Shown here in pieces: positions 1,130 to 3,074 of a DNA stretch of 4,303 bases. Positions within the stretch are counted from its first letter, which is position 1. The number at the start of each line of letters is the position of its first letter. Under the pieces are notes generated by a model. The model made no database searches, was not told the origin of the DNA, and saw only the letters and a program-made list of their open reading frames with translations. Position numbers and translations under genes: made by a program. The stretch is from Escherichia coli (GTDB lineage Bacteria; Pseudomonadota; Gammaproteobacteria; Enterobacterales; Enterobacteriaceae). The stretch lies in NCBI RefSeq assembly GCF_003334355.1, contig NZ_QOWP01000069.1. The stretch is one strand, 5' to 3'.

Positions 1130-2080
1130 ATGAGTATAAAAGAGCAAACGTTAATGACGCCTTACCTACAGTTTGACCGCAACCAGTGGGCAGCTCTGCG
1201 TGATTCCGTACCTATGACGTTATCGGAAGATGAGATCGCCCGTCTCAAAGGTATTAATGAAGATCTCTCGTTAGAAGAAGTTGCCGAGATCTATTTACCT
1301 TTGTCACGTTTGCTGAACTTCTATATAAGCTCGAATCTGCGCCGTCAGGCAGTTCTGGAACAGTTTCTTGGTACTAACGGGCAACGCATTCCTTACATTA
1401 TCAGTATTGCTGGCAGTGTCGCGGTGGGGAAAAGTACAACCGCCCGTGTATTGCAGGCGCTATTAAGCCGTTGGCCGGAACATCGTCGTGTTGAACTGAT
1501 CACTACAGATGGCTTCCTTCACCCTAATCAGGTTCTGAAAGAACGTGGTCTGATGAAGAAGAAAGGCTTCCCGGAATCGTATGATATGCATCGCCTGGTG
1601 AAGTTTGTTTCCGATCTCAAATCCGGCGTGCCAAACGTTACAGCCCCTGTTTACTCGCATCTTATTTATGATGTGATCCCGGATGGAGATAAAACGGTTG
1701 TTCAGCCTGATATTTTAATTCTTGAAGGGTTAAATGTCTTACAGAGCGGGATGGATTATCCACACGACCCACATCATGTATTTGTTTCTGATTTTGTCGA
1801 TTTTTCGATATATGTTGATGCACCGGAAGACTTACTTCAGACGTGGTATATCAACCGTTTTCTGAAATTCCGCGAAGGGGCTTTTACCGACCCGGATTCC
1901 TATTTTCATAACTACGCGAAATTAACTAAAGAAGAAGCGATTAAGACTGCCATGACATTGTGGAAAGAGATCAACTGGCTGAACTTAAAGCAAAATATTC
2001 TACCTACTCGTGAGCGCGCCAGTTTAATCCTGACGAAAAGTGCTAATCATGCGGTAGAAGAGGTCAGACTACGCAAATAA
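1130..2080 (+). CDS. coaA: Pantothenate kinase (type I CoaA), 316 aa
   Basis: The ORF 974..2080 contains the CoaA sequence from [20 protein letters not shown]... to ...[12 protein letters not shown], with the Walker A P-loop GSVAVGKST. The recalled CoaA N-terminus MSIKEQ corresponds to the ATG at 1130, which is Met53 of the six-frame ORF. The 52 upstream in-frame codons are not preceded by any SD and are taken as untranslated leader. Confidence 0.92.
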
Positions 2081-2086
2081 TTTGCA

Positions 2087-2117
2087 GGGGAGCGAATACT
2101 CCCCTTTCTTATTTTTC
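2087..2117. terminator. Intrinsic terminator hairpin between the convergent coaA and birA genes (stem GGGGAG 2087..2092 / CTCCCC 2099..2104, loop CGAATA, then T-rich tract 2105..2117 on the plus strand)
   Basis: The sequence gcaGGGGAGcgaataCTCCCCtttcttatttttctg sits 7 nt after the coaA stop codon. The T-tract follows on the plus strand, so it terminates coaA. The other flank on the minus strand is only moderately U-rich, so termination of birA is likely weaker. The hairpin and T-tract overlap the birA stop codon at 2109..2111. Confidence 0.6.
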
Positions 2118-3074
2118 TGCACTACGCAGGGATATTTCACCGCCCATCCAGGGTTTTATTATTCCATCCTGCTCAAGTAATAAAGCCCCCTGTTTGTCTA
2201 TTCCGCGTGAAATGCCAAATATTTCTTTATCACCAATGATAAGTTTCACTGGGCGATTAATAAAATTATCCAGCTTTTCCCAGCGCGACAGATAAGGTGC
2301 CAATCCTTCTTGTTCGAAGAGTTCCAACGCAGCACGTAATTCACGTATTAGCATGACCGCCAACGTATTACGATCGAGATTGATCCCCGCTTCCTGCAGC
2401 GTGATCCACCCCTGATTAACGACACTCTCTTCAACACGGCGCATTGCCATGTTGATCCCGGCTCCAATGACTATTTGCGCCGCATCGCCAGTTTTGCCAG
2501 TCAGCTCCACAAGAATGCCTGCCAGCTTGCGATCCTGCAGATAGAGGTCATTAGGCCATTTGACACGAACTTTATCTGCTCCCAGCTTGCGTAATACTTC
2601 CGCCATCACGATACCGATAACCAGACTTAAACCAATCGCCGCCGCCGGGCCTTGTTCCAGACGCCAGAACATCGACAAATATAAGTTTGCGCCAAAAGGC
2701 GAAAACCATTTCCGCCCCCGGCGACCACGGCCAGCCTGCTGGTATTCTGCAACACAGGCATCGCCCGATTTAAGCTCTCCGATACGATCAAGAAGGTACT
2801 GATTCGTGGAGTCAATAACTGGCAGCACGGCTACACTACCGCCATCCAGCTGACCCAATATCTGTTCAGCATTAAGTAACTGGATGGGCTCAGGCAGGCT
2901 GTATCCTTTACCCGGAACGGTAAAGACATCAACGCCCCAGTCACGCAGTGTCTGAATGTGTTTATTAATAGCCGCCCGGCTCATTCCCAGCGTTTCACCC
3001 AACTGCTCGCCAGAGTGAAATTCACCGTTCGCTAACAGGGCAATCAATTTCAGTGGCACGGTGTTATCCTTCAT
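2109..3074 (-). CDS. birA: Bifunctional biotin-[acetyl-CoA-carboxylase] ligase and biotin operon repressor BirA, 321 aa
   Basis: The translation [50 protein letters not shown]... has an N-terminal winged-HTH region and the biotin-binding glycine-rich motif [12 protein letters not shown]. Length and sequence match BirA. An SD GGAGA (plus strand tctcc at 3082..3086) lies 7 nt upstream of the ATG. Confidence 0.95.

Follow-up and report, generated by a model that had tools for sequence, protein, structure and literature searches.

Gene Layout of the coaA/birA Locus

The window, by which we mean the whole of the 4,303-nucleotide stretch analysed here, contains two convergent genes, coaA and birA, whose products were recognized by NCBIfam equivalog models: the CoaA sequence scored 480 bits against TIGR00554 (cut-off 235), and the BirA sequence 655 bits against NF008849 (cut-off 474). 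When the window was compared with the complete E. coli genomes, the 401 bases around the hairpin that lies between those two genes matched 5,421 of 5,426, many at 100%, with RefSeq coaA/birA annotation. In K-12 MG1655 the order is murB-birA (+), coaA (-), and thrU-tyrU-glyT-thrT, of which arrangement the window is the reverse complement, and the coordinates were converted as K-12 position = 4176156 - window position. The four tRNAs were located at 327-768 on the minus strand by ARAGORN and Rfam; and in the Rfam scan of the window those four were the only matches, with no RNA family being recognized at the coaA/birA hairpin. The two protein-coding genes are the following:

1130-2080, plus strand: coaA coding sequence (type I pantothenate kinase; NCBIfam TIGR00554), with its TAA stop at 2078-2080
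2109-3074, minus strand: birA coding sequence (NCBIfam NF008849), last gene of the murB-birA unit, with its TAA stop at 2109-2111

The gap from stop to stop occupies 2081-2108 and measures 28 bp, in agreement with the preliminary description of this DNA, which had given the same distance and the same two stop codons. At the opposite end of birA, the murB stop and the birA start share 4 nt (ATGA, window 3071-3074), which overlap is the usual sign of translational coupling in murB-birA.

A Single Hairpin Between the Two Stop Codons

The gap and its borders contain these elements:

2072-2085, minus strand: degenerate post-hairpin tail GCAAAUUAUUUGCG, overlapping the coaA stop and last codons
2086-2092, plus strand: 5' arm of the shared hairpin, AGGGGAG, which becomes the 3' arm when the birA strand is read
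2093-2098, plus strand: hairpin loop CGAATA, variable from genus to genus while the stem is kept
2099-2105, plus strand: 3' arm of the shared hairpin, CTCCCCT
2106-2117, plus strand: U-tract of the coaA terminator, TTCTTATTTTTC, running over the birA stop (2109-2111) as well as codons K321 and E320

The stem, formed by the pairing of A2086-G2092 with C2099-T2105, comprises 7 bp, 5 of them G-C, around a 6-nt loop; on the minus strand a further pair, U2098-G2093, leaves the tetraloop AUUC. Folding of the 20-mer gave -11.7 kcal/mol on the plus strand (z -4.30) and -13.2 kcal/mol on the minus strand (z -4.45; 8 bp, including the G-U pair), with 0 of 200 shuffles being as good in either instance, and across the different folds the energy of the stem-loop in the birA direction ranged from -13.2 to -14.3 kcal/mol. 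The whole stem is contained within the gap, 5 nt past the coaA stop and 3 nt past the birA stop. The hairpin had been said to overlap the birA stop codon, which statement holds for the T-tract, since that tract covers the stop and the last two codons (GAA AAA TAA), but not for the stem, which falls 3 nt short.

The window holds no excess of terminator-like patterns—a generic pattern was found 3 times, versus 4.4 +/- 2.1 in shuffles—so that the reality of the hairpin must be argued from its position, its fold z-scores, its conservation, and the mapped RNA ends. The absence of enrichment might favor a chance palindrome without function; but fold z-scores of -4.3 and -4.45, compensatory changes kept across genera, and RNA ends mapped on both flanks refute that notion, to which we would give next to no credence. 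The shared coaA/birA hairpin is real, and the view that one hairpin is common to both genes is upheld. Two other terminator-like matches on the minus strand, at 1459-1441 and 2724-2712, lay within coding sequences with no mapped end and were taken as chance.

The tails that follow the stem were compared by counting T residues after the G-C core, since in RNAfold structures the A-tract and the T-tract pair with each other and so distort a tail score. Downstream of the stem the coaA strand carries UUUCUUAUUUUUC, an interrupted U-tract, and in the tract taken as TTTCTTATTTTTC T occupies 10 of 13 positions. Within the 8 nt past the G-C core there were six T residues on the coaA strand versus three on the birA strand (tail TGCAAATT), in which latter strand a G and then a C come directly after U2086, the last base of the stem. 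The T-tract is thus clear on the plus strand only, just as the preliminary description had indicated, and the asymmetry of the sequence, with a good U-tract on the coaA strand alone, is real. Of the features of a bidirectional terminator, the window possesses a hairpin foldable on both strands between convergent stop codons, but not a U-tract on each strand. We also observed that window 2073-2085 is a perfect 13-nt palindrome, GCAAATAATTTGC, across the coaA stop codon; it is found only in the TTTGC alleles described below and lies directly after the hairpin on the birA strand.

Conservation of the Element Across Genera

A scan with one genome per species yielded 80 coaA loci of Enterobacteriaceae, from genera including Escherichia, Citrobacter, Kosakonia, Klebsiella, Raoultella, Atlantibacter, Franconibacter, Buttiauxella, and others. 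The convergent neighbor of coaA was birA in 67 of the 80, with a G+C-rich hairpin in almost every gap and with gaps of 23-47 bp, save for one exception at 65 bp. The stem was maintained through compensatory variants (GGGGAGC/GCTCCCC, GGGGGC/GCCCCC, GGGGGAT/ATCCCCC, GGAGAGC/GCTCTCC, and GAGGAGC/GCTCCTC), while the loops varied freely. When 59 of these sequences were aligned with MAFFT, 93.5% of the cells were paired, versus 45-65% with slid partners; at five of the seven stem pairs both partners had changed, and none of 500 shuffles matched either the observed percentage paired or the covariation score. RNAalifold recovered the same helix from the coaA/birA alignment.

The form of the element found in most genera is taaAAAAAGGGAGC...GCTCCCTTTTTtta, such that each gene's stop codon, together with the adjoining A- or T-run, constitutes the U-tract of the opposite transcript, and at least 5 T in 8 were counted on both strands in 55 of 68 loci, the window being one of those 68. 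Escherichia had the poorest birA-side tracts in that set. At the site of window 2072-2085, where most other genera carry an A-tract read as a U-tract for birA, the window shares the coaA-side allele TTTGC with K-12, whereas E. albertii and many E. coli carry TTTTC and still others TTTAA. By this comparison, the one-sided U-tract is derived in Escherichia, the A-tract having eroded on the coaA side. The stem has its own variant as well: the hairpin allele of K-12 and the window, GAGCGAATACTC, differs from that of other Escherichia, GAGCTAATGCTC, by two substitutions within 2093-2098, through which a C-G pair is opened, the loop becomes 6 rather than 4 nt long, and the plus-strand fold loses about 4 kcal/mol. 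The exact 58-mer of the window was present in 2,374 of the 5,426 complete E. coli genomes.

The C-terminus of BirA (window 2106-2117, with the corresponding site in loci L007-L020) is SAEK* in Escherichia versus SAE* in most other genera. The birA end of Citrobacter reads GAA TAA TAA AAAGGGG, with tandem stops, and that of Escherichia GAA AAA TAA GAA AGGGG; from these codons, it seems that in Escherichia a Lys codon has taken the place of the first stop, which change would also have lengthened the T-run of the coaA terminator.

Published RNA Ends on Both Strands

The published ends, together with a second stem-loop found near one of them, are located as follows:

2076-2086, minus strand: published birA mRNA 3' terminus, the dominant position being K-12 4174075 (window 2081)
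2110-2112, plus strand: published coaA mRNA 3' ends (Term-seq 4174046; TRS 4174044/45)
2149-2190, plus strand: second stem-loop, antisense in the birA coding end, GGGUUUUAUUAUU...AAUAAUAAAGCCC (-12.7 kcal/mol, z -2.96)

For coaA, the Term-seq of Adams et al. 2021 (eLife, PMC7815308) called a 3' end at 4174046(-), corresponding to window 2110 and labeled 'primary coaA, antisense birA', with 78,710 and 29,484 reads; the end is present in LB at OD 0.4 and again in the file's third sheet, which we took as M63 from its position there. TRS (Nat Commun 2023, PMC10687069) gave coaA termini at 4174044/45(-), or window 2112/2111. The coaA mRNA consequently ends as ...CUCCCCUUUCUU(AU), 5-7 nt past the stem. 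The preliminary description had proposed 3'-end mapping as a check, looking for plus-strand ends within 2105..2117; the published ends fall in that interval, inside the U-tract, and bear out the terminator function for coaA. In this direction every testable feature of an intrinsic terminator—stem-loop, U-tract, and in vivo end in the U-tract—is present. The TRS data contain a second terminus on the coaA strand at 4173960(-), or window 2196 (PMC10687069), and immediately upstream of that position is the stem-loop of 2149-2190, which may act either as a reserve terminator or as a hairpin protecting the RNA of coaA read-through.

For birA, TRS as applied to the RNAtag-seq data of Barsheshet (MG1655, LB, exponential) found a terminus at 4174070-4174080 that was significant in 3 of 3 replicates (PMC10687069), and Supplementary Data 4 of the same paper (3' UTRs) lists 4174075 as the 'Primary' birA terminus. 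At window 2081 the birA RNA ends as ...CUCCCCUGCAAA, 5 nt past the stem, so that on this strand a stable stem-loop without a U-rich tail is followed immediately by the 3' end. The published ends make the coaA and birA mRNAs overlap by approximately 30 nt across the hairpin. The TRS signal, defined as L/(L+D) and thus equivalent to 1 minus the local read-through, was 0.63 for the birA end versus 0.60 for the coaA end in the same data set (PMC10687069). The Term-seq of Adams et al. 2021 called no plus-strand (birA) end from 4172639 to 4175463 (PMC7815308), so that the birA end depends on the calls derived from RNAtag-seq. Both genes are weakly expressed, with birA at about half of coaA by CDS read starts (PMC10687069).

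From a U-tract visible on a single strand it does not follow that the other strand lacks a 3' end, because Rho and exonuclease trimming can define such an end. The similarity of the TRS signals on the two strands, along with the stronger hairpin on the minus strand and the symmetry of the orthologous elements, might nevertheless suggest a fully symmetric bidirectional intrinsic terminator, operating with similar efficiency in both directions despite the imperfect birA-side tract. This possibility we consider unlikely: the birA strand has only 3 U in 8 after the stem, with G and C first after U2086, Term-seq saw the coaA end only, and steady-state ends do not separate termination from trimming.

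Read-Through and Bicyclomycin-Sensitive Regions

The markers of read-through on the two strands are:

1862-1907, minus strand: birA-strand read-through markers, antisense in coaA (Rho region 4174249; TRS terminus 4174294)
2364, plus strand: coaA-strand read-through marker, antisense in birA (bicyclomycin-sensitive Rho region, K-12 4173792)

On the birA strand, Adams et al. reported a bicyclomycin-sensitive region at 4174249(+), or window 1907, with a Rho score of 3.58 (p 1.3e-7), where the reads upstream/downstream were 75/36 without the drug and 82/141 with bicyclomycin (PMC7815308), and TRS called an extra terminus at 4174294(+), or window 1862 (PMC10687069). The sequence upstream of this latter terminus folded no better than its shuffles (z +0.38) and contained no obvious protective hairpin. 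On the coaA strand, the corresponding reads at 4173792(-) were 115/19 without the drug and 203/138 with bicyclomycin, with a Rho score of 4.11 (PMC7815308). The drug-free ratio of downstream to upstream reads was thus 0.48 on the birA strand versus 0.17 on the coaA strand, in counting windows centred 200-250 nt past the hairpin, and the higher birA value fits a somewhat leakier birA termination. Since the downstream reads on the birA strand exceeded the upstream ones under bicyclomycin (141 versus 82), some of the antisense RNA may start inside coaA. With respect to rut composition, the first 78 nt downstream on the birA strand were only mildly rich in C and poor in G, the C/G ratio there being 1.25 for a strand background of 0.89, as compared with 1.82 on the coaA strand. 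What the bicyclomycin data show is only that some coaA-strand read-through is later stopped by Rho.

These results modify the picture of an efficient termination of coaA and a leaky one of birA, with antisense read-through from the latter, that had been suggested from the sequence. In favor of that contrast are the poor birA U-tract, the lack of a Term-seq end for birA, and the birA-strand markers at 1907 and 1862; against it stand a birA end at 2081 with a signal of 0.63 versus 0.60 and signs of read-through on the coaA strand too, in the Rho region at 2364 and the terminus at 2196. That transcription on the birA strand carries on into antisense coaA is supported by the Rho region at window 1907 and the terminus at 1862, although part of this RNA may come from a start within coaA. 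The proposed asymmetry would have been contradicted had termination been equally sharp in the two directions, and this contradiction holds by half: the steady-state ends proved similar, but for birA termination and trimming are indistinguishable in such ends.

The same observations bear on whether the hairpin might terminate coaA only, with birA transcription passing it practically unhindered and yielding a functional antisense RNA by which the expression of coaA is modulated. The poor U-tract on the birA strand, the absence of the birA end from the 2021 Term-seq, and the presence of a Rho-sensitive region plus an extra terminus antisense in coaA would all be expected on that assumption. The birA 3' terminus at the hairpin, with its signal of 0.63 versus 0.60 for coaA, and the equivalent signs of read-through on the coaA strand are nevertheless contrary to it; moreover, the low expression of birA, at about half of that of coaA, implies that any antisense effect would be small, and the published data examined contained no evidence of a regulatory antisense effect on coaA. 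We accordingly find such a role quite improbable.

Comparison With Known Terminators

In the coaA direction the element resembles the canonical intrinsic terminators of E. coli, such as lambda tR2, in having a G+C-rich stem, a short loop, and a U-rich tail, with the hairpin just past the stop codon and the RNA 3' end within the U-tract. It departs from them in that the hairpin is only 5 nt from the stop codon, the U-tract UUUCUUAUUUUUC is interrupted, and that tract doubles as the coding end of the opposing birA gene.

The closest bidirectional terminators with an A-tract, a hairpin, and a U-tract are the orthologous coaA/birA elements of Citrobacter, Kosakonia, Klebsiella, Atlantibacter, and others, which share the position, the GGGAGC/GCTCCC stem family, and the same two genes. 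Relative to those symmetric elements, the coaA-side A-tract of Escherichia is eroded (TTTGC, TTTTC, and TTTAA), leaving a good U-tract one way only, and the K-12 allele is missing one C-G pair of the stem.

The birA side is similar to the Rho-terminated transcripts described by Dar and Sorek 2018: a stable stem-loop with no U-rich tail, a 3' terminus 5 nt beyond it, and bicyclomycin sensitivity farther downstream. It differs from those transcripts by the weakness of the rut-like composition downstream of birA, and any reliance of this end on Rho and exonucleases is putative.

The arrangement also recalls the overlapping bidirectional terminators of Ju et al. 2019 and Wang et al. 2022 in its convergent pair, single hairpin, and overlapping ends. 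In the model put forward for that class, and by Wang et al. 2022 for ynaJ-uspE, the hairpin would pause the polymerases, which head-on and trailing collisions would then release. The geometry fits such a collision mechanism, the genes being convergent and their mapped transcripts sharing approximately 30 nt across one hairpin; but on the coaA side the element is a canonical intrinsic terminator, in contrast to the class as described, and both genes are weakly expressed, whereas the model applies best to highly expressed pairs. For these two reasons we regard a collision-dependent termination of coaA and birA, which for this pair is hypothetical, as very unlikely.

Proposed Explanation

We consider it quite probable that the one G+C-rich hairpin in the gap is the 3'-end element of both coaA and murB-birA; that it acts on coaA as an intrinsic terminator and on birA through a mixed route; and that it is leaky in both directions. 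On the coaA strand the RNA polymerase would free the coaA mRNA in the U-tract UUUCUUAUUUUUC, past the 7-bp stem with its 6-nt loop, which tract is built in part from the birA stop codon and last two codons. On the birA strand the same stem, slightly stronger there, is followed by GCAAAUUAUUUGCG, and the mRNA still comes to end just past the hairpin. Two routes would together produce that birA end: an inefficient hairpin-dependent termination, and a Rho termination some 200-300 nt downstream and a subsequent trimming by 3'-exonucleases back to the hairpin. According to Dar and Sorek 2018, the steady-state ends of Rho-terminated E. coli transcripts directly follow stable stem-loops without a U-tract, the stem-loop protecting against PNPase and RNase II; and the match of the birA end with the pattern there reported leads us to favor the mixed route. 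The rut-like composition being only mild (C/G 1.25), we infer rather than demonstrate the Rho and trimming step for birA.

The location of the stem, at 5 nt (coaA) and 3 nt (birA) past the stop codons, offers a reason for the incomplete termination in both directions. Li et al. 2016 found that the ribosome represses almost completely a terminator lying a few bp past a stop codon, and that such a terminator is fully efficient only at distances beyond about 30 bp; a ribosome terminating at the nearby stop may likewise occlude the stem here, as a likely contributor to the incompleteness on either strand. Rho would then clear the untranslated antisense read-through on both sides. A search of the literature uncovered neither in vitro nor mutational data on the coaA/birA terminator, nor anything else relevant to it, and the TERMITe and SMRT-Cappable-seq supplements do not mention coaA/birA.

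Significance of the Element

The element is an ordinary shared terminator of the textbook kind, whose RNA ends were already in published tables; its significance beyond annotation is little. It may serve as a worked example of a convergent gap of 28 bp in which the stop and last codons of each gene form part of the other's A/U tract, and the series from symmetric, in most Enterobacteriaceae, to eroded, in Escherichia, could be a natural set of variants for studying the rules of terminator directionality. It is conceivable, if highly improbable, that the loss of the birA-side U-tract in Escherichia and the weakening of the stem in K-12 are adaptive, letting murB-birA run antisense into coaA and so coupling the expression of both enzymes. 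Were that so, the expression of the biotin ligase would be linked to that of the pantothenate kinase, both of which enzymes feed acetyl-CoA carboxylase and fatty-acid synthesis.

Exceptional Loci

In 12 loci of Enterobacter, Leclercia, Lelliottia, and Silvania, a different terminator is located 3' of coaA, perfectly symmetric and reading about AAAAAAACCGGCGATAATCGCCGGTTTTTTT; a birA match was absent from all 12, and in the one that we checked the convergent neighbor was dppF (NF043071, 728 bits). The Tenebrionibacter locus likewise has no birA downstream of coaA, but the sequence there differs. The sole gap of 65 bp belongs to Entomohabitans teleogrylli, in which the structure is of unrelated sequence and the coaA strand has no clear T-tract. 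Finally, in E. coli RMDEC465 (NZ_CM177019.1, 2929300-2931300) an IS4 is inserted inside the hairpin, at the equivalent of window 2090-2101, with GAGCTAATGCTC as its 12-bp target duplication and with the two hairpin arms now about 1.4 kb apart.
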